DNA from: an uncultured Candidatus Saccharibacteria bacterium | GTDB taxonomy: Bacteria > Patescibacteriota > Minisyncoccia > Phycocordibacterales > UBA9973 | Assembly: GCA_964646765.1 (NCBI GenBank) | Contig: CAZYIA010000001.1 | Location: 151,339 to 215,338, forward strand | Length of the DNA stretch: 64,000 bases | Direction of reading: 5' to 3' | Shown here: positions 6,806 to 64,000 of the stretch, in pieces | How positions within the stretch are numbered: the stretch's first letter is position 1 | Layout of the letters: each line of letters starts with the position of its first letter | Program-made: the position numbers and the translations under genes | Notes under the pieces: generated by a model | Database searches by the model: none | The model's input: the letters and a program-made list of their open reading frames with translations, nothing else | What the model was told of the DNA's origin: nothing

Positions 6806-6927
6806 TTTTTTATTTAAATTTAAGATTAAATTTTTTTAAAAAAGAAATAGGAGATTTTTGAAGAGTTTTTCCACATTAAACTTTAAAATTTAATTTTCTA
6901 TTACCTCAAACTTCCTACAGTTTTAAT

Positions 6928-9900
6928 ATGGAGGTTAAAAAATTTTTGCAGGCATATTTTGCGCTGTTTCTCGTTGTGTTTTTTATTAGTTTTCTCTCAT
7001 TACCAGTATCAGCTAAAGCATCGACTCTTGTTGATACAGATATAACAGCTGATACCATATGGACTACTTCAGGAGACCCATATATTATTTCTGGACCAAT
7101 TTCAATTTCAGAACAGGCCACTCTCACCATCTCAAAAGGTGTGATAGTTAAGTTTCTTGATCCGTTATCGAGCCTGACAGTTTCAGGAGCTCTCCTAGCT
7201 CAGGGAACTAAAAATAAGCCAATTTATTTTACCTCGTACCAAGATGACACCATTGGTGGGGATACAAACCATGACTACCAAGATTCACTACCGTATCCAG
7301 GAGATTGGGACGGTATTGTTTTTGATAATACTGGTACATCAAGTTCACTTTTAAACGTTAAAATTACCTACGCTGAGAATGGTGTCACTGTTTGGGGAGC
7401 CCATTTAGTAGGAGAAAACATTTCCTGCTTAAATACTAATGGATGTTTTAATGTTTCAAATGGGGAATTATCGATCAATGGATTTCTCTCAGAAGGAGTT
7501 TCAGGAACTATATTCAATTTATATCAAAGTTCACTTTCTTTGGGGCAAGCGCTGATCCATAATATAGAAATAAGTCTTAATCCTTTTGCTCAATATATTA
7601 TTGACGGCTATGCCAGTAATGTTTCGCTCAATAATGTAACTATTGGTACAGTACCTGATCCGGTAAATGGAATAACTTTATTTAGTGGAAGTTCATTTCA
7701 AGCATCTAATTTAACTTTTGACTCACAGAGCAGTCGTGACGCCATAACGATTTTTAATGACAGCACCATTTCTCTTACTGATACTGTAATTAAAAAAACA
7801 ACCCCAGGGTTCTATGAGAGTGGGCTCTTGTTTTTCAATCATGCCGAAGCGGTGCTTACTAATGTAAAGGTTAATGGATTTGGTAACACAGGTATTTATG
7901 ATCTCGGATCGCAGAGTGGTTTTGGATCAAATGTGCTTTCGATGAATCGTGTTGAAGTTGACCATAATAATATTGGTTTTGGAGTTGATGATGGATTAGT
8001 GACACATGTAACAGACGTTTCAGTGCACAATAACGGCTATGCGCTCTTTGCTTATACAGATGTTCCCGTGGAATTTAAAAATGTGTGGTGGGGAAGTGAA
8101 AGTGGTCCAAATTATACGACAACCCCAACAGGAAGTAACAATGAAGTTTTTGGGCTTATAGACTATACGCCATGGGCAACAATTGATCCGTTTAATCCAG
8201 TTCCGACACAGTACTTTGCCAAAATTACAAGTATTCCTGGTGGAGTCGCAAAACTTTATGAATCTCCAAGTATAAGTGGGATATTAGTAAAAACTCTACC
8301 AAATGATTGGGTCGTGAAAGTGATTCAAAGAACACTTGATAATGGTCAGCCAGCAATTTCTGATGGTTATCGATGGTATAAGGTTGAAGATCCAACAGAT
8401 GGTTCGCAAATGTGGATGTTTGCTGGGCCAGAAATCGGCGCCGGTTCGCCATTTTTGCCATATGACTCAAGTTTGCAACAAAATTTACAGCATATTTCTT
8501 CTGATATTTTAAACACGAAAGCGTTGCGACGAGAAGCAATCCTAGAAGCGGTAGATCATTACTATAATGATACGAGTACCAACCCGTCATTGTATAGTTC
8601 GGATGATTCTCAAACAATTTCACTTCTTAAACAAATAAACATGCCAAAAGAAGTTTTACTAGCAATTATTTCCCAAGAATCTGGAATAGTAAATTTTGAT
8701 AATGAGAATGTGAGTTATGACTACGGTCACGGAGCGATGCAGATAACATTTAAAGCGTGGTCAAATGAAAATACCGCTAAAGGATATTCATATAAGAATA
8801 ATGATTGGGATAATCGAGGAGCGATGAGTCTAGTTACGCTAAGTAAATGTAAAAATTGGGATAAAAATATTTCCGGAATACAAAAAGGTGTAAATGATTA
8901 TGAAAGATGTTACGAAAATGCTGGAGGATATAATAAACTTCTAAAACCATATAAAAATTATGAGGATATTTCTACAAATCCAAGATATAAGCAATATACA
9001 AATACAGTCCAGTCGTTTTACGCGAATATTAAGGATGGACTTGGAGACCTTAGTAAGAAGTTTAATCTAACTCGTTCATGCCCTCATTCTAGTTTTACTA
9101 TTGAAAGTCTTACTTTCTCTTGTGAAGATGTACAGAAAATTCTTATGGTGTGGGCATATAACGGTCTCGGATTTGATAAAAAAACGAATCAATATACCGG
9201 AACTTACCTTCATGATATTTCGCAGAAACTAGCTAGTTTAAATAAAAATTTCTCTGGTATCAACTATTCCAATACAGACCAACTTATAGAAAAACTTGAG
9301 GTTGCTAATAAAAACAGAAAAACTATCAAAGTGTATAGTCCTGTAAAATTAAAAGTAACTGACTCAGAAGGGGATATTACGGGAATAAATGATGGTTTAG
9401 CAGTAGTTGATATTCCTAATTCAGTTTACGATGCTGATGCCGAAGCTGTCACTATTTTATTTCCAGAAGATACCTACGCATACCAGGTAGTGGGAGATTC
9501 TCAAGGAGGTTCTTATGGTCTTTCAGTCGAAAGTCTTAATAATAATGTAAAGATAAATTTCCTAGCAACAGATATTCCAATTACAACAGGTGAAATTCAT
9601 ACATATCATATCGACGAAGCTGCGCTGGCTTCGGGTGAAGATGGGGTAATGGTAGATATAGATAAGAATGGTGATGGTATTCCAGAGCGCACAGTTATGG
9701 CTGGACCAAAGCTTACCAGTCTCTCATATCAGTTTGATGGTTTTAAACCCCTACTTGATGGTAAGACATTCAAAAAGAACAAATCGCTTAATATTAAGTT
9801 TAGAGTGAAATCAAAAAATGGTATCCTTGTTCCATTACTTCATCCAACACTTTCAATTGTAAGAATTTCAGACGGTTTTCATGCAGATGTAAACCCAAGT

Positions 9901-10071
9901 ACATTCGAAGAAGATCCTGATTGCGATCCAGATGATAACTGCTTTAAAGGAAATCATAATCGCTACCGGTATATTCTTCCAGGAAGTACTCTCACACCTG
10001 GTACTTGGAAAGTCACGGTAGGATTAGATGATGGGAGTAGTTATAGTGCGGTAATAAATATCATCAACTAA
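6928..10071 (+). CDS. Secreted 1047-aa multidomain cell-wall-targeting protein: signal peptide, beta-helix region, SH3b-like domain, SLT lytic transglycosylase domain, C-terminal Ca-binding-like region
   Basis: N-terminal signal (LSLPVSAKAS). Repeated NGxT/NNIGFGVDDG pectate-lyase-type repeats. SH3b-like YFAKITSIPGGVAKLYESPSISG..YRWYKV. SLT motif LLAIISQESG..GHGAMQIT. DKNGDGIPE loop. Confidence 0.75.
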   Translation: MEVKKFLQAYFALFLVVFFISFLSLPVSAKASTLVDTDITADTIWTTSGDPYIISGPISISEQATLTISKGVIVKFLDPLSSLTVSGALLAQGTKNKPIYFTSYQDDTIGGDTNHDYQDSLPYPGDWDGIVFDNTGTSSSLLNVKITYAENGVTVWGAHLVGENISCLNTNGCFNVSNGELSINGFLSEGVSGTIFNLYQSSLSLGQALIHNIEISLNPFAQYIIDGYASNVSLNNVTIGTVPDPVNGITLFSGSSFQASNLTFDSQSSRDAITIFNDSTISLTDTVIKKTTPGFYESGLLFFNHAEAVLTNVKVNGFGNTGIYDLGSQSGFGSNVLSMNRVEVDHNNIGFGVDDGLVTHVTDVSVHNNGYALFAYTDVPVEFKNVWWGSESGPNYTTTPTGSNNEVFGLIDYTPWATIDPFNPVPTQYFAKITSIPGGVAKLYESPSISGILVKTLPNDWVVKVIQRTLDNGQPAISDGYRWYKVEDPTDGSQMWMFAGPEIGAGSPFLPYDSSLQQNLQHISSDILNTKALRREAILEAVDHYYNDTSTNPSLYSSDDSQTISLLKQINMPKEVLLAIISQESGIVNFDNENVSYDYGHGAMQITFKAWSNENTAKGYSYKNNDWDNRGAMSLVTLSKCKNWDKNISGIQKGVNDYERCYENAGGYNKLLKPYKNYEDISTNPRYKQYTNTVQSFYANIKDGLGDLSKKFNLTRSCPHSSFTIESLTFSCEDVQKILMVWAYNGLGFDKKTNQYTGTYLHDISQKLASLNKNFSGINYSNTDQLIEKLEVANKNRKTIKVYSPVKLKVTDSEGDITGINDGLAVVDIPNSVYDADAEAVTILFPEDTYAYQVVGDSQGGSYGLSVESLNNNVKINFLATDIPITTGEIHTYHIDEAALASGEDGVMVDIDKNGDGIPERTVMAGPKLTSLSYQFDGFKPLLDGKTFKKNKSLNIKFRVKSKNGILVPLLHPTLSIVRISDGFHADVNPSTFEEDPDCDPDDNCFKGNHNRYRYILPGSTLTPGTWKVTVGLDDGSSYSAVINIIN

Positions 10072-10072
10072 T

Positions 10073-10711
10073 ATGCAAAAGTATAAAACAAATTGGCTGC
10101 TCCTAGCAATTCTTCTTGTGTTGGTACTGATAGATTGCAGATTTATTTTAACTTACAACTCTTCTCTTCCTAAGTCAGTTCCAATTATCTATCAGGAGAA
10201 AGAAGAAGTGGAAAAATTTGGTGATTTAGAAGTAAGTTATCCTAAAAAGGTTATTTCGTTTTCAAAAGATATAGATGATGAAGGAGGTTATTTTACACTT
10301 AAAAATTATAATTTTATTTCTGATTCCTTCCCCAAGAAATATGTGGCTGCAAATTTTTCTATAACCTTAAATCCAAACGCTAATCCTCAGAAGTTAGATA
10401 TCCAAGATTGGTGGCTAGATAACTCTTTTGAGAATGAGCGTGGAGCGCCAGCTTCTAATATTCATGAAAAAATAAGTTTGTCTAATCAAGAAGCTTTTAA
10501 AACAGTATTCGAACAACAAAATAGTTTTGGTCTTCCTTTCTACGAAACAGTTATTATCTATCTCCCGTATGGCACCGATATCTACGAAATCCGCGGCTAC
10601 CAACTCCCAGAAAACCCAGATCCAGCTCTAACTCCTGAAGATATTAAAGCCGCTCAAGAGTACGAAAAAATCTTTAATCAAATGCTTCAAAGTATTCATT
10701 TTAGCGACTAA
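10073..10711 (+). CDS. Hypothetical membrane-anchored protein (212 aa), likely co-transcribed with the 1047-aa protein
   Basis: 2-nt gap from the upstream gene; N-terminal TM helix. Confidence 0.55.
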   Translation: MQKYKTNWLLLAILLVLVLIDCRFILTYNSSLPKSVPIIYQEKEEVEKFGDLEVSYPKKVISFSKDIDDEGGYFTLKNYNFISDSFPKKYVAANFSITLNPNANPQKLDIQDWWLDNSFENERGAPASNIHEKISLSNQEAFKTVFEQQNSFGLPFYETVIIYLPYGTDIYEIRGYQLPENPDPALTPEDIKAAQEYEKIFNQMLQSIHFSD

Positions 10712-10716
10712 ATAAA

Positions 10717-10747
10717 ATCGGCTCCGAAGAAATTCGGAGCCGATTAG
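10717..10747. terminator. Bidirectional intrinsic terminator
   Basis: AATCGGCTCCGAA-GAAA-TTCGGAGCCGATT, a perfect 13-bp stem between convergent genes. Confidence 0.6.
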
Positions 10748-10770
10748 GAAATAAGTTGGTTAGTAAGTAT

Positions 10771-11910
10771 TTAGCGTTCAATTCTGTAGGAGCCGATGTC
10801 GTCTCCTTCTTTAATGAAAACAAATTGGAACAGTTGGTTATCACCACAGCGAAATGAGCCGGCACAGCATAGAAGGTAATAGTCCCACATGCGACAGAAC
10901 CGTTCACCGTACAGTTTTTTTGCAACGTGTCTATTTCTTTGGAAGTTTTTATACCAGGCCATCAACGTCTTATCGTAGTAGGGCCCAAAATTATGAAAAT
11001 CCAGTTGTTTGAACAAGTTGCGTGTTGCTGTATCTACCTGCTCCATAGAAGGAAGCATAGAGTTTGGGAAAATGTATTTGTTTATCCAGGCATCAGTATT
11101 GGTTACCGAGGTTAGCCCACCAATGGTGTGTAGTAGGAAAATGCCTTTCGTTTCTAACACATCATATACGCGTTCCATAATAGTTCTGTAATTCTTATAG
11201 CCAACATGTTCTATCATGCCGCAGATAAGAACTTTGTCGTAGGTTTCTCCATTTACACCTAAGTCGCGGTAGTCCATCTCAATAATTTCTACCGAAAGCC
11301 CTTTGGTGTATTCGCGAGCGTATTTTGCTTGCTCGCTAGATATTGTGATGCCGGTTACCTTGCAGCCGTAGTGTAGAGCAGCAAATTTTGCAAATCCACC
11401 CCAGCCACAGCCGATATCAAGCACCCGGTCGCCCTGCTTCAGTTGTAATTTACGGCAAATAAGGTCAAGTTTTTGTTCCTGTGCCTTATTTAAATCGTTA
11501 GTGTTTTTGAAGTATCCGCAGGTATATTGGTTGTACGGGTCTAAGAAACTCCCGTACATTTCAGTGCTCAAATTGTAGTGTTCAAGTGCTACCTGTAAAC
11601 TGCCAGTTCTATCTTGCTGATTGAACAATACTGATTGCAGGTAGGGAATAAAGAGTAGTAAGGGATTAAGCTTCTTCTGAAGCTTGGCTGAAAGCAGCTT
11701 AGTAAAAAACACATCAAGTTTTTTACAAGTCCACCATTCATCCATATAGGCCTCGCCTAAACCAAGCGAGCCATGTTGTAGGATTCGATGGTACAGATCA
11801 ACGCTGTACTCATTCTTAATTTGGATATCCCAGGCCCGTGGGCCGTTTACTAATATGTCAGAACCGTTTAATAAGTCCTGCAGTTTCTGTAGTGCGATGA
11901 TTGTATTCAT
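10771..11910 (-). CDS. cfa: Cyclopropane-fatty-acyl-phospholipid synthase family SAM-dependent methyltransferase
   Basis: VLDIGCGWGGFAKFAA SAM-binding motif; length and CFA-synthase-like N- and C-terminal regions. Confidence 0.85.
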   Translation of the reverse strand: MNTIIALQKLQDLLNGSDILVNGPRAWDIQIKNEYSVDLYHRILQHGSLGLGEAYMDEWWTCKKLDVFFTKLLSAKLQKKLNPLLLFIPYLQSVLFNQQDRTGSLQVALEHYNLSTEMYGSFLDPYNQYTCGYFKNTNDLNKAQEQKLDLICRKLQLKQGDRVLDIGCGWGGFAKFAALHYGCKVTGITISSEQAKYAREYTKGLSVEIIEMDYRDLGVNGETYDKVLICGMIEHVGYKNYRTIMERVYDVLETKGIFLLHTIGGLTSVTNTDAWINKYIFPNSMLPSMEQVDTATRNLFKQLDFHNFGPYYDKTLMAWYKNFQRNRHVAKKLYGERFCRMWDYYLLCCAGSFRCGDNQLFQFVFIKEGDDIGSYRIER

Positions 11911-12024
11911 TGTTGTCAGTTTTTCCGCATACTAGCCCATAAGTATGTAATTTGTCTAGGTAACTATTCCGCTAGGTACGTGGAGTGATATACTTTAGAA
12001 GTTACTCGCTAATTAAGAAATTTT

Positions 12025-12204
12025 ATGGAAACTAAAGAACATTACATTTGTTTAGGAGGCTGTCATGGCGTTTCTGAGAATCCGGGCGTTTGCCAGGCGG
12101 CAGATTGTGCTAATCATAACCACGAGCTCGTGCCATGTGACTGTACTGATGGTACTCATTACAACTTTGAACACGGTGCAAACGGAGTAACCCAGAATGG
12201 CTAA
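12025..12204 (+). CDS. Small Cys/His-rich protein (59 aa), putative metal-binding; not in the ORF track
   Basis: METKEHYICLGGCHGVSENPGVCQAADCANHNHELVPCDCTDGTHYNFEHGANGVTQNG has 6 Cys and 7 His. Its stop overlaps the start of the next small ORF (AATGGCTAA). Confidence 0.4.
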   Translation: METKEHYICLGGCHGVSENPGVCQAADCANHNHELVPCDCTDGTHYNFEHGANGVTQNG

Positions 12205-12340
12205 GAAAAAGGTAGTAAAAAAAGTGGCTCCGAAGCCTGAAAATAAAAAACCAGGTGCCTATCCTCTTAAGAACAAAACAGAGGAGTTTGTGCTTAAGCA
12301 TCCGCCAGCTTTGAAGCCAAAAAACAAGCGAGCAAAATAA
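12197..12340 (+). CDS. Small lysine-rich basic protein (47 aa), translationally coupled to the Cys/His-rich ORF
   Basis: MAKKKVVKKVAPKPENKKPGAYPLKNKTEEFVLKHPPALKPKNKRAK; the ATG overlaps the upstream stop; a strong terminator follows directly. Confidence 0.35.
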   Translation: MAKKKVVKKVAPKPENKKPGAYPLKNKTEEFVLKHPPALKPKNKRAK

Positions 12341-12344
12341 AGAA

Positions 12345-12375
12345 ACGGCCCACTGAGTGGGCTTTTTCTTTATTT
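12345..12375 (+). terminator. Intrinsic terminator after the micro-ORF pair
   Basis: GGCCCACT-GA-GTGGGC stem then TTTTTCTTTATTTTT. Confidence 0.6.
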
Positions 12376-12404
12376 TTGAACCAGCTTTTGGTTTATGGTA
12401 TAGT
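12376..12404 (+). promoter_or_regulatory. Sigma70-like promoter for dnaJ (TTGAAC-N17-TATAGT)
   Basis: TTGAAC at 12376..12381 and TATAGT at 12399..12404. No CIRCE element seen. Confidence 0.4.
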
Positions 12405-12466
12405 ATCGCTCCATCCGGGAGTTGTGCAGTTTTGGCTACGGATTTTGGTAACTAAGTAAGCAATAT

Positions 12467-13549
12467 ATGGCAAAAGACTACTACAAAGTATTAGGCGTTG
12501 AACGAGGTGCAACAAAGGAAGACATCAAGAAAGCCTTCCGTAAATTGGCGCATCAGTATCATCCAGACAAAAATAACGGGGACGATAAGAAGTTTAAGGA
12601 AGTGAACGAAGCGTACCAAGTGCTCTCTGATGACCAGAAACGCGCCCAGTACGATCAATTTGGTTCTGACTTCCAAGGATACGCAGGTGGCCAAGGAAAT
12701 CCATTCCAGGGCGGTTTTGGTGGCTTCAATCAAGGTGGCTTTAACGTGAACTTTGAAGATCTTGGTGACTTAGGTGAAATGTTCGGCTTCGGCGATATTT
12801 TTGGTGGTGGCGGACGTGCCCGCGAGGCTCGCGGCCGTGATATTGCAACTGAAATCAATGTCTCGTTTAAAGACGCTGCGTTTGGAACTGAACGCCGAGT
12901 GCTCTTAACTAAAACGTCACTTTGTCACGTATGTGCAGGAAGCGGCGCAAAGCCAGGGACGAAAAAGAAAACTTGTACGAAATGTAACGGTAAAGGCCAG
13001 GTGCGCGAAACTCGAAATTCATTCTTTGGTCAAATTGCTACAACCGCAGTTTGTTCGACGTGTCAGGGAAGTGGTGAAATTCCGGAAACTCCATGTACTA
13101 ACTGTCACGGTGCTGGTGTAGAAAATCGCCAAGAGGAAATTACTATCGTTATTCCAGGCGGCATTGAAAATGGCGAAATGATTCGTATGACCGGTATGGG
13201 CGAGGCCGTAAAAAATGGCACAGCTGGAGATTTGTATGTAAAAGTAAATGTCTCGTCTGATCCGGTATTTAAACGAAACGGTAAAGACATTCACATGACA
13301 CTTCCAATTAAGCTTACTGAAGCTCTACTTGGATCTGTGAGAAAAGTAGCGAGCCTCGATGGAGTAGTTGAAGTTACTATTCCTGAAGGAGCGCATCACG
13401 GTCAGCAAATCAGAATTAAAGGAGAGGGCATTATGGCCGAGCGCGGACGCCGCGGAGATATGGTAGTTTCGCTTGATATTGCACTGCCAAATAAACTCTC
13501 TAAAAAAATGCGCGAACTGGTTGAGAAAATGAAAGAAGAAGGAATGTAG
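12467..13549 (+). CDS. dnaJ: Chaperone DnaJ (Hsp40)
   Basis: J-domain YYKVLGV..HPDKN; G/F-rich region; four CxxCxGxG zinc-finger repeats. Confidence 0.95.
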
Positions 13550-40810: not shown

Positions 40811-41938
40811 ATGAAGATCGTTTTTACTGGAGGGGGAACAGGCGGCCATTTCTATCCGCTCATTGCTGTAGCCGAAAAAATTAATCAAATTGCCGACAAG
40901 GAAAAAATTGTCGGTCTCAAGCTCTACTTTATGTCGCATGATCCGTACGACAAGGAGCTTTTATTTGAAAATAGTATTACATTTTTGCCAGTCTCTACCG
41001 GTAAACAGCGTGTATATCGTTCATGGCGCAATATTACTGACCTCATTAGTATTGCTATGGGGTGTATTTCGGCAACGATAAAATTATTTTTCTTGTATCC
41101 GGACGTTATTTTTTCGAAAGGTGGTTATGGTGCTTTCCCAGCACTTTTTGCTGCAAAACTACTGCGCATCCCAGTAATTATTCATGATAGCGATACTGTT
41201 CCAGGCCGCGTCAGTATTTGGAGTGGAAAATTTGCTAAGCATATTGGTGTTGCGTATCCAGAAGCAGTAGAATATTTTCCTAAAGAAAAAACGGCATGGG
41301 TTGGTGTGCCAATTCGTGATGCTATAAAAGAAAAACCAACCGAGGGCATGTATGACATTCTTGGTCTAGAACCGGGAACGCCAACTATTTTGGTTACTGG
41401 AGGATCCCAGGGTGCAGAACGAGTAAATAATGTACTCATTGATGCGCTTCCAGAGCTTTTAAATCGATACCAGATTATTCATCAAGCCGGTGTAAACAAT
41501 ATGAAGGATGTTTTAGGACGTACCTCAGTTGTTCTCGATAAACATCCATATTTCAAGCGCTATAAACCATTTTCTTATCTAAATGAGCTTAATTTAAAAA
41601 TGGCTGCTGCTGCCTCGAAAATCGCTATTTCTCGTGCAGGTTCTACCATATTTGAACTTGCCATTTGGGGATTACCGTCGATCATTATTCCGCTTCCTGA
41701 AAGTATTTCTCGTGATCAGGCAAAAAATGCATTTTCCTATGCTCGCAATGGTGCTTGTACCGTAATTGAAGAGGAAAACTTAACACCATCGGTACTTATT
41801 TCCCAAATTGATAATCTCATCAATAATCCTACTCGGCTTGAAGCCATGTCTCTTAAAGCGAAAGAATTTGCCAAAGTAGATGCAGCTGAAAAAATTGCTC
41901 GTGATATTGTAGACGTTGCCCTAAAACACGAAAGTTAA
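40811..41938 (+). CDS. murG: UDP-GlcNAc:lipid I N-acetylglucosaminyltransferase MurG
   Basis: MKIVFTGGGTGGHFYPLIAV. Confidence 0.9.
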   Translation: MKIVFTGGGTGGHFYPLIAVAEKINQIADKEKIVGLKLYFMSHDPYDKELLFENSITFLPVSTGKQRVYRSWRNITDLISIAMGCISATIKLFFLYPDVIFSKGGYGAFPALFAAKLLRIPVIIHDSDTVPGRVSIWSGKFAKHIGVAYPEAVEYFPKEKTAWVGVPIRDAIKEKPTEGMYDILGLEPGTPTILVTGGSQGAERVNNVLIDALPELLNRYQIIHQAGVNNMKDVLGRTSVVLDKHPYFKRYKPFSYLNELNLKMAAAASKIAISRAGSTIFELAIWGLPSIIIPLPESISRDQAKNAFSYARNGACTVIEEENLTPSVLISQIDNLINNPTRLEAMSLKAKEFAKVDAAEKIARDIVDVALKHES

Positions 41939-41939
41939 T

Positions 41940-43652
41940 ATGGAAAGCGAGCGACGAACGTGTAGAAAGTGCAACCAAGAGTTCGTCATTGATTCTGACG
42001 ACTTTGAGTTCTATAAAAAAATAAATGTGCCACCGCCGACACATTGCCCGCACTGTCGTATGATTCGACGAATGCTTTTTCGTAATGAACGAGCTTGGTA
42101 TCGTCGCACTTGCGCGGCAACTGGTAAGCCAATACTTTCAATGTATGCACCTGACCTTCCGCTTACTGTTTACGAAGAGAACTATTGGAAAAGCGATGCT
42201 TGGGATCCACTCGACTACGGTCGCGAATATGATTTTTCTCGAGGTTTTTTTGAGCAATTTTTTGAACTTTTTCAGGCTGTACCACATCCAAACCTGATTC
42301 AAAAAAATAATGTTGGAAGCGACTACTCAAATCACACCCTGAACCTGAAGAATTGTTATTTCTGTATTAGTACTGATACTGCTGAAGATTCCAGCTATCT
42401 TTTTACGGCAATGATCCGTATGCGCAATTCGTTTGATGGCCACCAGTCGTCTGACTCTGAATACTGCTATGAAATTGTAGACTCCAAGAAATGTAATCGC
42501 TCGCTCTTTATTCAAAATTGCGAAGCCTGTGTCGAGTCAGCCCTTTTGTATGATTGTCGTAACTGCACAAACTGTTTTGGTTGCACTGGTCTTCGTGGAG
42601 CACAGTACGTGATTTTTAATGAGCAATATTCAAAAGAGGACTATCATAAAAAAGTTGCTGAATATCTCAACGGTAGCTATAGAGCTCTCCAAACAGCACT
42701 TAAAAAATTTAATGAACTCAAGCTAGCATATCCGCATAAGTACGCGATGATCACTAATGCGCAAAATGTCTCTGGGGATGATATTTATAATGCTCGTAAC
42801 TGTGCACAATGTTTCTTTGCTCGCGACAATGTCGAAAACTGCAAATATGGCTATCGTATTTGGGAAAATACTAAAGACGGCTGGGATGGCATTGTGGTGT
42901 GGAAGGGAAGCGAAGTATTTTATGAAGTGCTTTCTGTAACTGGCCAGCGAATTTCCTTCTCAGCGTATGTGTGGGGTGGAAATGATATCGAGTATTCTTA
43001 TAATTGTTTCGACTGTAATAATGTATTTGGCTGTATTGGACTTCGTAGTAAATCCTATTGCATTTTCAACCGACAGTATACAAAAGAAGAGTATCAAGAA
43101 CTTTTACCAAAAATAAAAGAGAGTATGAAATCTCGTGGCGAATACGGCGAGTTTTTTCCAATTGAGCGTTCTCCTTTTGCATATAACGAAACCATTGCTC
43201 AAGATTATTTCCCACTTACTAAAGATGAAGCAATTACTAAGCAGATGCCATGGCATGATCCTGAGGTAAAGTACTACAACGTCACTATGACAGCTGACAC
43301 TATTCCGGATTCCATACAAGAAGTTACTGATAACATTACCAAAGAAGTTATTGCCTGCGCTCATAACGGTGAATGTACCGAACAGTGCTCAACTGCCTTT
43401 CGGGTAACACCTGAGGAAGTTCAATTTTACAAAATGATGAAGTTGCCATTGCCGCGACTTTGCCCAAACTGTCGTCACTTTGGCCGAGTAAAAATGAAGA
43501 CGCCGCTTAAGCTTTGGCACCGCTCATGTATGTGTAATCAAGCTACTCATGACCACTCTGGTACCTGTCCAAACGACTTTGAGACGGCGTATGCTCCAGA
43601 ACGCCCAGAAAAAATCTATTGCGAGAGCTGTTACCAGAAGGAAATCCTCTAA
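41940..43652 (+). CDS. Large cysteine-rich protein (570 aa), copy A of a paralogous pair, with an internal tandem module duplication
   Basis: N-terminal CRKC..FYKKINVPPPTHCPHCRMIRRM. Two internal modules ending ..NCFGCTGLRGAQYVIFNEQYSKEDY and ..VFGCIGLRSKSYCIFNRQYTKEEY. C-terminal FYKMMKLPLPRLCPNCRH ..ERPEKIYCESCYQKEIL. 1-nt gap after murG. Confidence 0.8.
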   Translation: MESERRTCRKCNQEFVIDSDDFEFYKKINVPPPTHCPHCRMIRRMLFRNERAWYRRTCAATGKPILSMYAPDLPLTVYEENYWKSDAWDPLDYGREYDFSRGFFEQFFELFQAVPHPNLIQKNNVGSDYSNHTLNLKNCYFCISTDTAEDSSYLFTAMIRMRNSFDGHQSSDSEYCYEIVDSKKCNRSLFIQNCEACVESALLYDCRNCTNCFGCTGLRGAQYVIFNEQYSKEDYHKKVAEYLNGSYRALQTALKKFNELKLAYPHKYAMITNAQNVSGDDIYNARNCAQCFFARDNVENCKYGYRIWENTKDGWDGIVVWKGSEVFYEVLSVTGQRISFSAYVWGGNDIEYSYNCFDCNNVFGCIGLRSKSYCIFNRQYTKEEYQELLPKIKESMKSRGEYGEFFPIERSPFAYNETIAQDYFPLTKDEAITKQMPWHDPEVKYYNVTMTADTIPDSIQEVTDNITKEVIACAHNGECTEQCSTAFRVTPEEVQFYKMMKLPLPRLCPNCRHFGRVKMKTPLKLWHRSCMCNQATHDHSGTCPNDFETAYAPERPEKIYCESCYQKEIL

Positions 43653-43784: not shown

Positions 43785-44039
43785 ATGGCAGAAAAGACAT
43801 CAGCATTTATGAAGCCAATGAAGCTCACTCCAGAGCTCGAGGCAGTCGTTGGTAAGGGCCCAATGCCACGCTCTGAAGTAGTTAAGGCTCTCTGGGTCTA
43901 CATTAAGAAAAATGGTCTCCAGGACCAGAAAAACAAGCGAAACATCAACGCTGACGAAAACCTTAAGAAGGTCTTCGGCGGAAAGGGAACTGTTTCAATG
44001 TTTGAAATGACCAAGCTCGTTTCAAAACACCTTTCTTAG
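43785..44039 (+). CDS. SWIB/MDM2-domain protein
   Basis: PRSEVVKALWVYIKKNGLQDQKNKRNINADENLKKVFG..VSMFEMTKLVSKHL matches the SWIB consensus. Confidence 0.8.
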   Translation: MAEKTSAFMKPMKLTPELEAVVGKGPMPRSEVVKALWVYIKKNGLQDQKNKRNINADENLKKVFGGKGTVSMFEMTKLVSKHLS

Positions 44040-44061
44040 TTCTCAGAAAACTTAGAATAAA

Positions 44062-44090
44062 AAGAACGCCTCATCGGCGTTCTTTTTATT
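44062..44090 (+). terminator. Intrinsic terminator
   Basis: AAGAACGCC-TCATC-GGCGTTCTT then TTTATTT. Confidence 0.6.
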
Positions 44091-59469: not shown

Positions 59470-60978
59470 TTATGCAATCAAGTTTTTTCCAGTCATTGTT
59501 TTTGGTACTGGAAGATTAAAGAGCGAGAGCATTGTTGGCGCGACATCAGCAAGCGTGCCGTTAGAAAGTTTTATATTTTCTTTGGTAAGAATTACTGGTA
59601 CACGGTTCAAGGTATGCGCAGTATGTTTTTCATGCGTTTCTTGATCAATATTGAGTTCGGCATTTCCATGATCGGCGGTAATAAGCGCTACGCCGCCGTG
59701 AGCTGTAAGAGCTTCAATAAACCGTTTTAGTTCGCGATCAATTGTTTCAACGGCAATAACAATTGCTTCTTTATTTGCTGTATGGCCAACCATGTCTGCG
59801 TTGGCGTAGTTAATGAAAATAAAGTTGGTGCCTTTTTCAATTTGCTCGATAGCTTTGTCGGTAATTTCTTTCGCGCGCATCTCTGGAGCTAAGTCGTGTG
59901 TCGGTACATCTTTTCGGCTCGGAACTAAAATATGCTCTTCACCAGCATGTGGAGCTTCGCGACCACCGTTTAAAAAGTACGTTGCGTGCGGATATTTTTC
60001 GGTTTCGGCAATGTGCGCTTGTGTAAAGCTAGCGTTTGAAAGTTCGTTAGCTAAAGTCGTTTCAATAGTTCCTGGCAGAAATGCTGCATGTTCGCTTAAA
60101 TCTTTCTCGTATTGTGTAAGAGTTACAAGTTTTATATTTTTTTCTTTTGCGTGCTCAAGAATTTTCTTCGTGAGCATGCGAGCACGATCAGGACGATAGT
60201 TAAAGAAGAATACGCCATCGTTATTTTCTATGGTGTAGGCTTTACCACTCTCGTCTAAAAATACATGTGGCTCAAGATGTTCATCAAGCACACCATCTTT
60301 ATAGAGCGCTTTCAAAATAGCTGAAGGTGTACGAGTAATGTGTGTTTTACCCTTACCGTGGAAAATAGCTTGTTCAGCTTTAGCTAAGCGATCCCAGTTG
60401 TGGTCGCGATCCATCGCATAAAAGCGGCCAGAAGCGGTAGCGATAAAACCAATACCAAGTTCTTCTAAGAGATTTTCGAGCTCTTTAAGTGATTGATGTG
60501 CACTTTGTGGTGGAGTATCACGGCCGTCGGTAAACACGTGAATGGCAATTTTTTCTATTCCAAATTCTTTCGCCGCTTTTAAAATACCGTGCAAATGGGC
60601 ATGATGGCTATGAATGCCGCCTGGTGAAAGAAGCCCCATTAAATGAAGCGTACTTCCCTCTTTTTGCACATGCTCAAATAGCTCGCTAATTTTTGGATTT
60701 GTTGGAAATTCACCGCGGTTCATAGCTTTGGTGATGCGAACTAAATCGGTATCAATTATTTTTCCAGCACCAATCGTCATATGGCCAATTTCACTGTTAC
60801 CAATTTGCCCGGATGGTAGCCCAACATCCTCGCCTGATGCATCAAGTACCGCATGCGGATATCTCACCAAAAGCGAATCAAAAAACGGTGTCTTTGCTTC
60901 CGCAATGGCGTTATCTTGTGTATCTTCCCGATGCCCCCAGCCATCGAGAATAATTAGAGCAATCTGATTATTTTCCAT
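59470..60978 (-). CDS. gpmI: 2,3-bisphosphoglycerate-independent phosphoglycerate mutase
   Basis: LIILDGWGHRED..; full-length iPGM (502 aa). Confidence 0.9.
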   Translation of the reverse strand: MENNQIALIILDGWGHREDTQDNAIAEAKTPFFDSLLVRYPHAVLDASGEDVGLPSGQIGNSEIGHMTIGAGKIIDTDLVRITKAMNRGEFPTNPKISELFEHVQKEGSTLHLMGLLSPGGIHSHHAHLHGILKAAKEFGIEKIAIHVFTDGRDTPPQSAHQSLKELENLLEELGIGFIATASGRFYAMDRDHNWDRLAKAEQAIFHGKGKTHITRTPSAILKALYKDGVLDEHLEPHVFLDESGKAYTIENNDGVFFFNYRPDRARMLTKKILEHAKEKNIKLVTLTQYEKDLSEHAAFLPGTIETTLANELSNASFTQAHIAETEKYPHATYFLNGGREAPHAGEEHILVPSRKDVPTHDLAPEMRAKEITDKAIEQIEKGTNFIFINYANADMVGHTANKEAIVIAVETIDRELKRFIEALTAHGGVALITADHGNAELNIDQETHEKHTAHTLNRVPVILTKENIKLSNGTLADVAPTMLSLFNLPVPKTMTGKNLIA

Positions 60979-60981
60979 AAA

Positions 60982-61653
60982 TTAAAAGCGTTTATATATT
61001 TCAGTGATAATTTTTTCTGTGGCAGTTTTGTTGTAAATGCAAAGTTCAGTAACTTCTTCTCCGGTTTCTTTAAGTTCGTAGGCTTTGGTTTTATTAATTT
61101 TTATATTACCTACTAAATTTGGTTCACCAATTTTAAACCCTTCTTGTTGAATCGGTAAAGTTACTTTCATCCCGTTCGTTTCAATGACGTATTCTCCTTG
61201 ACCTTCTTTAGTAACATCAATGACATCAATATGCTTTTTATTATTGACTAAATCTCGAATTTTTCTTGGAAATGAAGCAGGGACACATGTATTTTCAATA
61301 CTAACTCCTGTATCAGAATCATTTGTCAGTTTAAGTAAGTAAGTGTGCAGTTGGGGTGAAGTAAATTTAAGATAAGAAAATGGCTCTTTTCCTTCTGTTA
61401 ACTGTCGAGAATAAAATGGGAAATAAATTTTCTTTTTCGAAAAGGAAGAATTATATGGTGAGATAAATTTCTCAAAAATATCTTGGGCACAGTAATCGAA
61501 GAGTTCTGTTGAGTTAGCTAAAATATCCCCAACTGAATGAGCGACATCATTAATGTCAGTTCCTTCCATTTTTGCCTTAAAAAGGACGTCACCAAGGTCA
61601 TTAATTTTACTAGAAATATACTTCAGTTTTTCTTTAATATTATCTTGTCGCAT
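60982..61653 (-). CDS. Hypothetical protein (223 aa) between Cys-rich paralog B and gpmI
   Basis: 3-nt and 22-nt gaps to its neighbours; no family recognised. Confidence 0.55.
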   Translation of the reverse strand: MRQDNIKEKLKYISSKINDLGDVLFKAKMEGTDINDVAHSVGDILANSTELFDYCAQDIFEKFISPYNSSFSKKKIYFPFYSRQLTEGKEPFSYLKFTSPQLHTYLLKLTNDSDTGVSIENTCVPASFPRKIRDLVNNKKHIDVIDVTKEGQGEYVIETNGMKVTLPIQQEGFKIGEPNLVGNIKINKTKAYELKETGEEVTELCIYNKTATEKIITEIYKRF

Positions 61654-61675
61654 TTTTGGAATCTATAATCTTCCC

Positions 61676-63376
61676 CTATATTACTTCCTTCTGATAACAA
61701 CTTTCACAATACACCTTTTCCGGCCGCTCTGGCGAGTAACTGGTCTCGACTTCAGTTCCGCACTTATCACAAGTACGCTTCCAAAGCTTCATTGGATTTT
61801 GCTTAGCCAAGCGGCGCTTGTGGCGCTCGTCAGGATGTAGTCGCGGCAGAGGAATATTCATTGTTTTATAAAATTGGAACTCGGCAGGAGTTAAGCGAAA
61901 TGCTCGTCCTGATATTTCACATTCAATGACTTCCTTCATAATTATGTCGCTAACAAAACGAATATCATCAGGCAAATCTTTTGCCTTTATAGTTATTGTG
62001 TGAGCGTTTTTCTCAATTTCTTTATATCGAAAACCATTTTTCTCGGCTTCATCTTTTGAAAGTGGAAAGTAGCTATTGGCTAAACTTTCGTTATAGGCAA
62101 AAAGTGAAATCTCGCTTGGGAAAAATTCGCCATACTTATATACGCGCCCAAGTTTGTCGATATACGGCATATCCATCATATGCTGTTTTATTTTTGGTAT
62201 GAGCGCTTCGTATTCTTCCTTCGTATATTGCTTGTTTAAAATGCAGTACTCTTTATTTTTGAGTCCAACGCAGCCGAAAATATTTTTATTAGGGGAAACT
62301 ATGTGGTACGAGTATTCGATATTCGTGCCTGGCGCCCAAGCATCAAAACAAAACTTCACCATATCCTCACTGTCACCTGCTCCCATACATTCGTAAATGC
62401 GGGTGGCGTTTTGACCCCAGAAAGTCATATCATAACAGTCTCGAGCCGGCTTATAGAAAACAAATTGGCAATATTTAGAATCTTCTACTGCAATGTTATA
62501 GAAACTATCAAAAACGTTTTTACAATCGAATAAAATATCGCCAGAGACATTTTTATTGTGCACCCCGTGCATATAGCGTACCGGAGCGGTTTTATGAAAT
62601 GCTGCCGCCTGCTTTTTTAGATTTTCAACCACAGTGTATGAACCGAGATTATATTTTTTTATTTCCTCGGCATACGATTCTTTTGTATATGGCTGATTAA
62701 AAATGTAATACGACTTATTTCGTAAGTTAACGCAGCCGAAACAATTTTGACAGCCGTATAAATCTTTTGAAAAGTACACATCAACACAGTCTTCGCAGTT
62801 CTCTGAATAAAATGTTCGGTAACAGTTACCAACGTATGCACATTCGTACGACAGTTCACATGAAGCACTGCCATACATATCGAAACATTTTTTGGCGTAT
62901 CGAGTGAATGTTGTGTAGCTAGATTCCTCACTAAAAGCAGTATTGGTAACCAAGTAGCAATCCTTGTTATACGTGCCCATATTGGTGTATTCAGAGCGAA
63001 TGAGTGTGGTGTACTGACTCTGGAGCGAAAACTGCGGTACCTTTCGTAACAGTTCGCCAAATTGGGTAAAGAATGGTCGAGAAAAGTCATAGTCTTGGCC
63101 GTAGTCTAGCGCGTCCCAGTTGTCACTCCACCAAGCTTTTGGTGAATATACTGGAACTTCTGCATCTTGAGGAAAAAGTGAAACTACCGACTCCCCTGTC
63201 ATGTCGCAGGTGCGTTTATAGAAAGTGCGTTCATTTAAAAAACTCATGCGGCGCTGAGCCCGGCATTGAGGGCAAAATGTTGGCGGCGGCACCTCAACCT
63301 TTTTATAGAAATCGAAATCGTCTGTTGTTATTTCAAACGACTGCTTGCAAGCTTGGCATGATTTCGTTTCGTTCAT
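61676..63376 (-). CDS. Large cysteine-rich protein (566 aa), copy B of the paralogous pair
   Basis: Same architecture as 41940..43652, with identity throughout (N-terminal CQACKQSFEITTDDFDFYKKVEVPPPTFCPQCR; NCFGCVNLRNKSYYIFNQPYTKESY; IFGCVGLKNKEYCILNKQYTKEEYEA; ERPEKVYCESCYQKEVI). The C-terminal ribbon has degenerated (PLPRLHPDERH). Confidence 0.8.
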   Translation of the reverse strand: MNETKSCQACKQSFEITTDDFDFYKKVEVPPPTFCPQCRAQRRMSFLNERTFYKRTCDMTGESVVSLFPQDAEVPVYSPKAWWSDNWDALDYGQDYDFSRPFFTQFGELLRKVPQFSLQSQYTTLIRSEYTNMGTYNKDCYLVTNTAFSEESSYTTFTRYAKKCFDMYGSASCELSYECAYVGNCYRTFYSENCEDCVDVYFSKDLYGCQNCFGCVNLRNKSYYIFNQPYTKESYAEEIKKYNLGSYTVVENLKKQAAAFHKTAPVRYMHGVHNKNVSGDILFDCKNVFDSFYNIAVEDSKYCQFVFYKPARDCYDMTFWGQNATRIYECMGAGDSEDMVKFCFDAWAPGTNIEYSYHIVSPNKNIFGCVGLKNKEYCILNKQYTKEEYEALIPKIKQHMMDMPYIDKLGRVYKYGEFFPSEISLFAYNESLANSYFPLSKDEAEKNGFRYKEIEKNAHTITIKAKDLPDDIRFVSDIIMKEVIECEISGRAFRLTPAEFQFYKTMNIPLPRLHPDERHKRRLAKQNPMKLWKRTCDKCGTEVETSYSPERPEKVYCESCYQKEVI

Positions 63377-63381
63377 AAAAA

Positions 63382-64000
<619 letters not shown>

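Follow-up and report, generated by a model that had tools for sequence, protein, structure and literature searches.

A conserved protein gene adjoins murG

The window analysed here is a 64,000-nucleotide (nt) stretch from an uncultured Candidatus Saccharibacteria bacterium (contig CAZYIA010000001.1 of assembly GCA_964646765.1, positions 151,339 to 215,338). At 41940..43652 (+) it carries an open reading frame (ORF) for a protein of 570 amino acids (aa), which starts 1 nt after the murG stop codon at 41938 (junction TAA-T-ATG), as an original prediction made from the sequence had described. Sequence comparison and structural modelling predict a cytoplasmic protein in which zinc ribbons flank two beta-solenoids, and we place high confidence in this description and in the assignment of the protein to an ancient paralog family. 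The motifs quoted in the original prediction are present, with FYKKINVPPPTHCPHCRMIRRM at aa 24–45, FYKMMKLPLPRLCPNCRH at aa 496–513, CESCYQKE at aa 561–568 and the two module copies at aa 205–235 and aa 354–385. The number of cysteines, given there as about 45, is 32 (5.6%), and a paralog in the same window has 27.

The gene is real and not a pseudogene, a possibility that had been raised, since it has at least 6,583 homologs in 90% clusters, those listed being mostly full-length. Specifically, the homologs among the matches listed mostly have 99–100% query coverage and lengths of 550–610 aa. A profile run exhaustively against 1.84 billion representatives gave 5,045 clusters (50% identity) at E ≤ 1e-3 and 2,240 clusters at E ≤ 1e-30. 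The ORF list and a confident structural model (below) likewise support the gene call. Horizontal transfer was considered and dropped, because the guanine-plus-cytosine content of the gene (0.413) matches that of the window (0.415).

One public gene call (P0001, NCBI/Logan) has 530 aa, begins at M41 and loses the first zinc ribbon (window 41940–42059, aa 1–40), and an alternative Logan call (P0271) has 570 aa. The 570-aa start is favoured because residues C8, C11, C36 and C39, which precede M41, are present in 223–226 of 227 full-length relatives, the alignment of which underlies the cysteine analysis throughout. The 530-aa public call needs to be extended to 570 aa.

The core of the family is covered by no Pfam or NCBIfam model, and the family has no relative of solved structure. 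Matches in Pfam and NCBIfam are confined to sub-threshold hits to the terminal ribbons, with none in the core, in agreement with the earlier statement that the protein belongs to no known family, and family members have a blank in the precomputed Pfam column, drawn from a later release in which PF26449 is present. Searches of PHROGs and PADLOC with the 570-aa protein gave noise-level matches only, a hidden Markov model (HMM) search of PDB sequences gave no match at E ≤ 1, and Foldseek against PDB returned none at E ≤ 1e-3. When every ORF of 162 loci was searched with HMMs, the solenoid module turned up in this family only. A scan of viral contigs returned no relative, and this is therefore not a phage family. 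Literature searches with the domain names and with Paceibacteria paralog families found no paper on the family. The treble-clef fingers and the beta-solenoid of which the protein is built are of known kinds; the family, its architecture and its genomic arrangement are undescribed. As far as source names show, the family is confined to Paceibacteria, which belong to the candidate phyla radiation, the names placing it in Paceibacteria/Minisyncoccia (Liptonbacteria, Staskawiczbacteria, Jorgensenbacteria, Nomurabacteria, Brennerbacteria and Giovannonibacteria).

Predicted zinc ribbons at both ends

The N-terminal segment begins with a zf_Tbcl-like ribbon (ribbon 1, aa 6–43, 41955..42068, +), which matches PF13451 (zf_Tbcl) with 21.7 bits and an E-value of 2e-4, below the gathering threshold of 24. 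The cysteine pairs C8/C11 and C36/C39 reproduce the pattern of this domain, in which the pairs flank F-Y...P-x-x-C-x-x-C-R. In a family sample of 45 proteins, 22 match zf_Tbcl (E ≤ 0.1) and 12 match zf_Tbcl_2, and none of these matches covers the core. Ribbon 1 is followed by a degenerate CxxC-x17-CxxC ribbon (aa 54–85, 42099..42194, +), recognised by its cysteine pattern and by alignment with hhalign to ribbon 3, in which only C58 remains. The corresponding positions 58/61/79/82 read CCCC in 98 of the 227 relatives; in the others, the cysteines at 61, 79 and 82 vanish together and C58 often stays. Because the losses are coupled, these four positions read as a real metal site.

The C-terminal segment has the same order of modules. 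Ribbon 2 (aa 473–517, 43356..43490, +), which aligns with ribbon 1, is zf_Tbcl-like in its ligand pattern (C473, C483, C508 and C511) and contains an inserted loop with H475 and C479. Ribbon 3 (aa 526–569, 43515..43646, +) is of the CxxC-x17-CxxC type, and its cysteines C530, C543, C561 and C564 are kept in 225–226 of 227 relatives. Its first knuckle is interrupted by a 10-residue His-rich insertion (C530-x12-C543, then C543-x17-C561-x2-C564), and with this split knuckle the protein has no PF23477 or TIGR04272 match. In the paralog, the C-terminus has the spacing C536-x2-C539-x17-C557-x2-C560 and scores 26.0 bits with PF23477 (cut-off 27) and 21.8 with TIGR04272 (cut-off 36). The likeness of the two ends, which the original prediction had noticed, is borne out by hhalign (aa 1–83 versus aa 466–565, probability 99.7%, E 1e-25), and each end thus consists of a zf_Tbcl module plus a CxxC-x17-CxxC module.

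In the 227 relatives, the only invariant cysteines are ribbon ligands. Near-threshold HMM matches and conserved ligands together uphold the earlier view of the ends as zinc-ribbon (treble-clef) modules, and by its ligand pattern the 570-aa protein is predicted to have three intact Cys4 ribbon sites and a degenerate fourth. Small CxxC-x17-CxxC proteins of Methanosarcina mazei bind zinc by inductively coupled plasma mass spectrometry (PMC12704099), and by analogy zinc is the expected metal of the ribbons here.

A stand-alone ORF of 106 aa, made of a double ribbon (zf_Tbcl plus zf_Tbcl_2, both sub-threshold), lies beside a family array in another genome (locus L020, 13502–13822, the same region as L066, 779–1099).

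Two beta-solenoid modules and an acidic segment

We ran AlphaFold2 with a 45-sequence alignment and obtained a confident single-chain model, with a mean predicted local distance difference test (pLDDT) score of 84.9 and a predicted template modelling (pTM) score of 0.85. In the model, ribbon aa 1–45 and a ribbon-like hairpin (aa 54–67) are followed by helices, a first solenoid (about aa 130–230) with strands at residues 165, 177, 189 and 201, i.e. a 12-residue period, helices at aa 232–263, a second solenoid (about aa 270–380), a helix at aa 382–398, a coil-rich yet confident stretch at aa 400–470, and ribbons at aa 473–517 and aa 526–569.

The two solenoids are copies of one module. Module 1 (aa 134–242, 42339..42665, +) comprises a beta-solenoid, a cap with the motif GCxGLRxxxYxIFNxQYSKE[DE]Y and a helix, as defined by the modelled strands, the periodicity and hhalign, and module 2 (aa 283–392, 42786..43115, +) has the same cap motif and is placed by hhalign against module 1 and by the modelled secondary structure. 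The internal duplication claimed originally is real (aa 134–242 versus aa 283–392, probability 99.9%, E 5e-32); its unit, taken before as about 45 residues, is about 108 aa, because the profile–profile alignment spans 108 columns. Plain BLASTP self-comparison of the 570-aa protein missed the repeat, and profile comparison was needed. The duplication of the solenoid and that of the ends together give a palindromic layout, [ribbon pair] – solenoid – solenoid – [ribbon pair].

Between the second module and ribbon 2 lies an acidic segment with the consensus EYGEFFPxExSPFAYNETxAQDYFP... (aa 400–470, 43137..43349, +), which is strongly conserved in the 227 relatives. The median net charge of aa 381–470 is −7. 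In the full-length model the segment has a pLDDT of about 87–95, and when it is modelled without the solenoids its first 27 residues fall below 50. The ribbon regions are net positive (medians +2 and +4), and the remainder of the protein is acidic. The conservation map shows that ribbons, caps and acidic segment are invariant and that the first coils of each solenoid are poorly conserved.

Solenoid cysteines as packing residues

In the solenoids, Cys or Ser recurs at every third position (autocorrelation 0.5–0.7 at lags 3, 6, 9, 12 and 15) and hydrophobic residues recur with a period of 12, while Cys, Ser, Val and Leu freely replace one another at single positions. The original prediction took the CxxCxxCxxC spacing as a sign of metal or Fe-S binding. 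An Fe-S or redox metalloprotein that used these runs would account for the high cysteine content (5.6%) and for the complete cysteine set at positions 206/209/212/215 in 139 of the 227 relatives. The remaining 88 relatives, however, carry swaps at single positions to Ser, Leu or Val, among them CCCS (32), LCCC (13) and CVCC (6), and tolerance of hydrophobic replacements is not what is expected of a ferredoxin-type 4Fe-4S site, from which the spacing differs as well (CxxCxxCxxC, not the established CxxCxxCxxxCP). The recurrence of Cys or Ser every three residues on all coils instead fits the core packing of a 12-residue coil. We therefore read the solenoid cysteines as inward-facing packing residues of a narrow coil, and consider an iron–sulfur or redox function highly improbable. 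A coil of about 12 residues in which every third position is Cys or Ser makes this solenoid an unusual variant of the fold, one that should interest structural biologists.

Genomic context of the two copies in the window

The position of the gene behind murG (40811..41938, +) had been taken as a hint of a role in the envelope or in division. An ortholog of 84% identity keeps the order murE-mraY-ftsW-murG followed by the gene, including the 1-nt junction, and no terminator precedes the next gene in the window, which would be in line with a factor tied to murG and the division and cell wall (dcw) operon. However, the adjacency is shallow: in an ortholog of 74% identity the gene follows an FtsX/ABC pair instead and the murG link is gone. 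Furthermore, among 80 loci of other genomes, picked by similarity to the query, dcw genes occur within 8 kb on either side in only two (L060 and L071), which is about the chance rate on a rough estimate of our own, as are all chance rates for adjacency given here. One of the two, L071, has two family copies between ftsW and murG (6855–13442) and gltX downstream; it alone among the 80 shows a tight association with dcw genes, and its insertion point is unlike that in the window. In addition, most family copies sit in arrays or in unrelated operons, and the 570-aa protein has no signal peptide or transmembrane segment and starts with a zinc ribbon. Recurrent adjacency to murG or other dcw genes, proposed as a check, is thus not seen, and synteny largely refutes the envelope or division role, to which we give very little chance. 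The murG adjacency appears incidental, the 1-nt junction would reflect co-expression in this genus only and carry no functional signal, and a cell-wall label should not pass from murG to the 570-aa gene.

Downstream of the gene lies an 84-aa SWIB-domain ORF (43785..44039, +), whose match is to the SWIB tail that topoisomerase fusions carry. Both the 84% and the 74% ortholog also have a SWIB gene downstream, and in the former an 838-aa ORF without a Pfam match stands between the two. A bidirectional, terminator-like hairpin with a 15-bp stem (44056–44090) probably ends the transcription unit.

The diverged paralog reported in the original prediction is present at 61676..63376 (−). It has 566 aa, is 41% identical to the 570-aa protein over the full length (BLASTP E 2e-152) and belongs to a different subfamily. 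At 59470–63972 (−), enolase (eno), the paralog, an unannotated 223-aa ORF without an NCBIfam match and the phosphoglycerate mutase gene gpmI follow one another on the same strand, and the paralog is therefore embedded in a run of glycolysis genes. According to ARAGORN, the whole window is devoid of tRNA and tmRNA genes.

Tandem arrays of old paralog lines

The 80 loci contain 256 family ORFs, with up to nine per 17-kb locus. Array copies stand head to tail on one strand, the usual arrangement of the family, and at several junctions the copies overlap by a few nucleotides. Adjacent copies are 28–56% identical (median 40%), and for 97% of copies the nearest relative is found in another genome and not in the same array, indicating that the arrays are old sets of distinct paralog lines. 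At roughly 45% identity the family falls into about 35 subfamilies. Long tblastn spans had suggested introns or inteins and proved to be merged adjacent paralogs.

Copy numbers per genome, as counted from partial assemblies on single contigs, reach at least 12–13 in each of two assemblies (L019 plus L028; L051 plus L025 plus L079). Paceibacteria genomes are well under 1 Mb, and we estimate that at least 12–13 copies of a 1.7-kb gene amount to a few percent of coding capacity. Such old and conserved paralog lines make it probable that the family has a central role in these episymbionts.

Other copies are found beside housekeeping genes. A family copy lies between purL and purQ in four loci (L004, L037, L056 and L081, around 8001–9737; two copies in L004), pgk adjoins arrays in five loci, and cutA (cutA1) is found inside arrays in eight loci, usually directly before a long ATPase gene.

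These settings bear on two further explanations. In the first, the proteins would be nucleic-acid-binding regulators, with the double ribbons binding DNA or RNA, the variable solenoids sensing a ligand or partner, and singletons regulating their host operon (dcw, eno-gpmI, purL-purQ or pgk). The basic ribbons (medians +2 and +4) in an otherwise acidic protein, the occurrence of singletons in various housekeeping operons and the small number of recognised regulators in reduced genomes, which is general knowledge, would all suit such a role. The charge is modest, however, there is no likeness to a known DNA- or RNA-binding fold beyond the generic treble clef, tandem arrays of up to nine regulators would be odd, and dcw adjacency is no commoner than chance; we therefore consider regulation unlikely.

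In the second, the solenoids would stack end to end in the manner of bactofilins or curli and form a heteromeric cytoplasmic filament or scaffold, connected by the ribbon pairs and assembled by the ATPases described below. Operon-like arrays of distinct ancient paralogs fit stoichiometric co-expression, and the palindromic layout places similar modules at both ends. However, each solenoid is closed by conserved elements outside the solenoid fold, and the high pTM suggests a compact single-chain fold in which open-ended stacking would have little room. Neither the order nor the composition of the arrays was found to be conserved across the loci, contrary to what a fixed multi-subunit operon would lead one to expect. 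Such an assembly is quite improbable, more so than regulation.

VirD4-like ATPases flank the arrays

The recurrent neighbour of the family is a P-loop ATPase, VirD4/TraD-like and apparently soluble. Of the 80 loci, 28 contain it, with 34 genes in total; almost every one shares the strand of the family genes, and most stand at the edge of an array. Its scores exceed the Pfam thresholds of TrwB_AAD_bind, T4SS-DNA_transf, TraG-D_C and DUF87 (HerA), with PF10412 at 40–48 bits (threshold 20.5) and PF12696 at 28–31 bits (threshold 22), and it thus has the P-loop domain of the coupling proteins of type IV secretion systems (T4SS). Two forms occur, a short ATPase of about 495 aa and a long ATPase (630–800 aa) with a zf_Tbcl_2 ribbon (54–56 bits) and a Pro-rich tail. 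NCBIfam matches to TraD, VirD4 and CedD are far under the equivalog cut-offs. The membrane anchor and the VirB4 and relaxase linkage of T4SS coupling proteins were not found: by eye, no N-terminal membrane segment is seen, the Walker A motif standing at residues 39–81 after hydrophilic sequence, and VirB4, relaxase and mating-pair genes are absent from the recurrent neighbours in family loci.

Several loci, including L032, L036, L059, L088, L093, L095, L149 and others, share a cassette of the form short ATPase – family genes – CutA (in some) – long ATPase. Upstream of the cassette there are often secD, secF, a sigma-r4/HARE-HTH gene, and genes for a PF26449 membrane protein and a small membrane protein.

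The PF26449 label is a precomputed Pfam assignment of a membrane protein of about 460 aa with an N-terminal hydrophobic segment, encoded upstream of the short ATPase in L050 (2135–3511). Homologs occur in L016, L020, L032, L035, L043, L055, L059, L072 and L074, and there are 609 in all, nearly all from Paceibacteria or Patescibacteria by name. In L059 (14363–16525), L066 and L071, trmD comes next after the long ATPase, and L066 and L071 additionally have a comEC split into a channel and a metallo-beta-lactamase part; the trmD label in L059 and the comEC assignment come from our own clustering and sequence reading. In some genomes, the cassette thus stands near the gene for the ComEC DNA-uptake channel.

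For a reciprocal comparison, metagenome contigs were scanned with an alignment of the ATPase, giving 80 ATPase loci. Twelve of these carry the family, all within 1.5 kb. Among the closest ATPase orthologs with enough flank, about 11 of 17 carry the family by our own count, and distant ATPases (55–58% identity) have no family copy. The link is therefore tight for one ATPase lineage and not general. Shared ancestry inflates the counts for the link.

A 2025 survey counted 5,713 VirD4-like genes in 2,918 Patescibacteria genomes, of which 148 are near virB4, the remainder being unexplained (PMC12102498). The array/ATPase cassette offers a testable handle on these orphan ATPases.

A non-enzymatic scaffold as the favoured interpretation

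The 570-aa protein is probably non-enzymatic, judging from its conservation: no catalytic-type residue set is found among the positions at least 97% conserved in the 227 relatives, and the lack of any Pfam, NCBIfam, PADLOC or PDB sequence match in the core was counted in the same direction. Our tentative preference, which we stop short of calling probable, is for a zinc-binding scaffold, either adaptor or cargo, that works with VirD4-like ATPases. The invariant ribbons, caps and acidic segment may form a common handle, while the variable first coils of each solenoid may provide paralog-specific binding, so that the family proteins would act as binding scaffolds, adaptors or cargo for a partner machine built on an orphan coupling-protein-like ATPase. 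The arrays are often bracketed by ATPases, one of which carries a CxxC-x17-CxxC ribbon too, and a partnership with ATPases is thus the most likely one. Taken by itself, the step that makes the proteins adaptors or cargo of the ATPases is possible but doubtful.

Several points weigh against this scaffold interpretation. Both copies in the window are singletons in housekeeping operons, and the 64 kb contain no VirD4-like ATPase. The ATPase link is not reciprocal overall, being found in 12 of 80 ATPase loci and, among the 50 that have 6 kb or more of flanking sequence, in eight, and the family loci are phylogenetically non-independent and selected by query similarity, so that conserved synteny could yield part of the signal. 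Stable orthologous subfamilies are unusual in secreted effectors, and rigid zinc-bound folds are poor translocation substrates. No characterised homolog informs the function. The AlphaFold2 model was calculated without metals, and its ligand geometry and solenoid handedness hold at the level of a model.

A more ambitious proposal, which we regard as speculative and rather unlikely, is that the paralog arrays, the short and long VirD4-like ATPases and the PF26449 membrane protein constitute an undescribed Paceibacteria-specific machine, with the solenoid proteins as its panel of adaptors or cargo. If true, a coupling-protein-like motor would receive solenoid proteins, each with its own specificity, while the whole could serve host-cell exchange or the trafficking of DNA or protein, and a role would be found for thousands of VirD4-like genes of Patescibacteria that lie far from virB4.

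Comparison with known systems

The terminal modules resemble zf_Tbcl (PF13451) and zf_Tbcl_2 (PF23477, TIGR04272) in cysteine spacing and share with their fingers the signature F-Y-x-x-hydrophobic-x-P-x-P-x-x-C-P-x-C-R. Whereas those families are single small domains, the modules of the 570-aa protein are paired, and the pair is duplicated at both ends, with one of the four modules degenerate.

Among narrow beta-solenoids, the antifreeze or ice-binding proteins of spruce budworm (1m8n) and ryegrass (3ult) and the curli subunit CsgA (8c50) are alike in having a short coil and an interior of small residues (Cys/Ser), and the Tenebrio antifreeze protein is a 12-residue beta-helix. In contrast to these proteins, the family protein is predicted to be cytoplasmic, is flanked by zinc ribbons and has no signal peptide; no Thr ladder is seen, identity is 5–7%, and its cysteines swap with Ser, Val and Leu without obligate disulfide pairs. 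The secretion, disulfide-braced coils and Thr ladder of antifreeze-type 12-residue beta-helices are therefore all missing, and the resemblance is one of analogy, not homology. The hexapeptide left-handed beta-helix enzymes (gamma-carbonic anhydrase, GlmU and LpxA/D) are distant from the family in Foldseek comparison (E ≥ 0.03, TM-score ≤ 0.24); the family has periods of 3 and 12, not 6 and 18, and shows neither a hexapeptide signature nor a Pfam Hexapep match.

The ATPases that flank the arrays share the TrwB_AAD_bind, T4SS-DNA_transf and TraG-D_C domains with T4SS coupling proteins (VirD4/TraD/TrwB), and an ATPase gene next to a run of partner genes resembles T4SS effector arrays. They differ from coupling proteins in having no visible N-terminal membrane segment and in scoring under the NCBIfam equivalog cut-offs. 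Unlike in the classical T4SS linkage, the VirD4-like genes of Patescibacteria lie mostly away from virB4 (PMC12102498).

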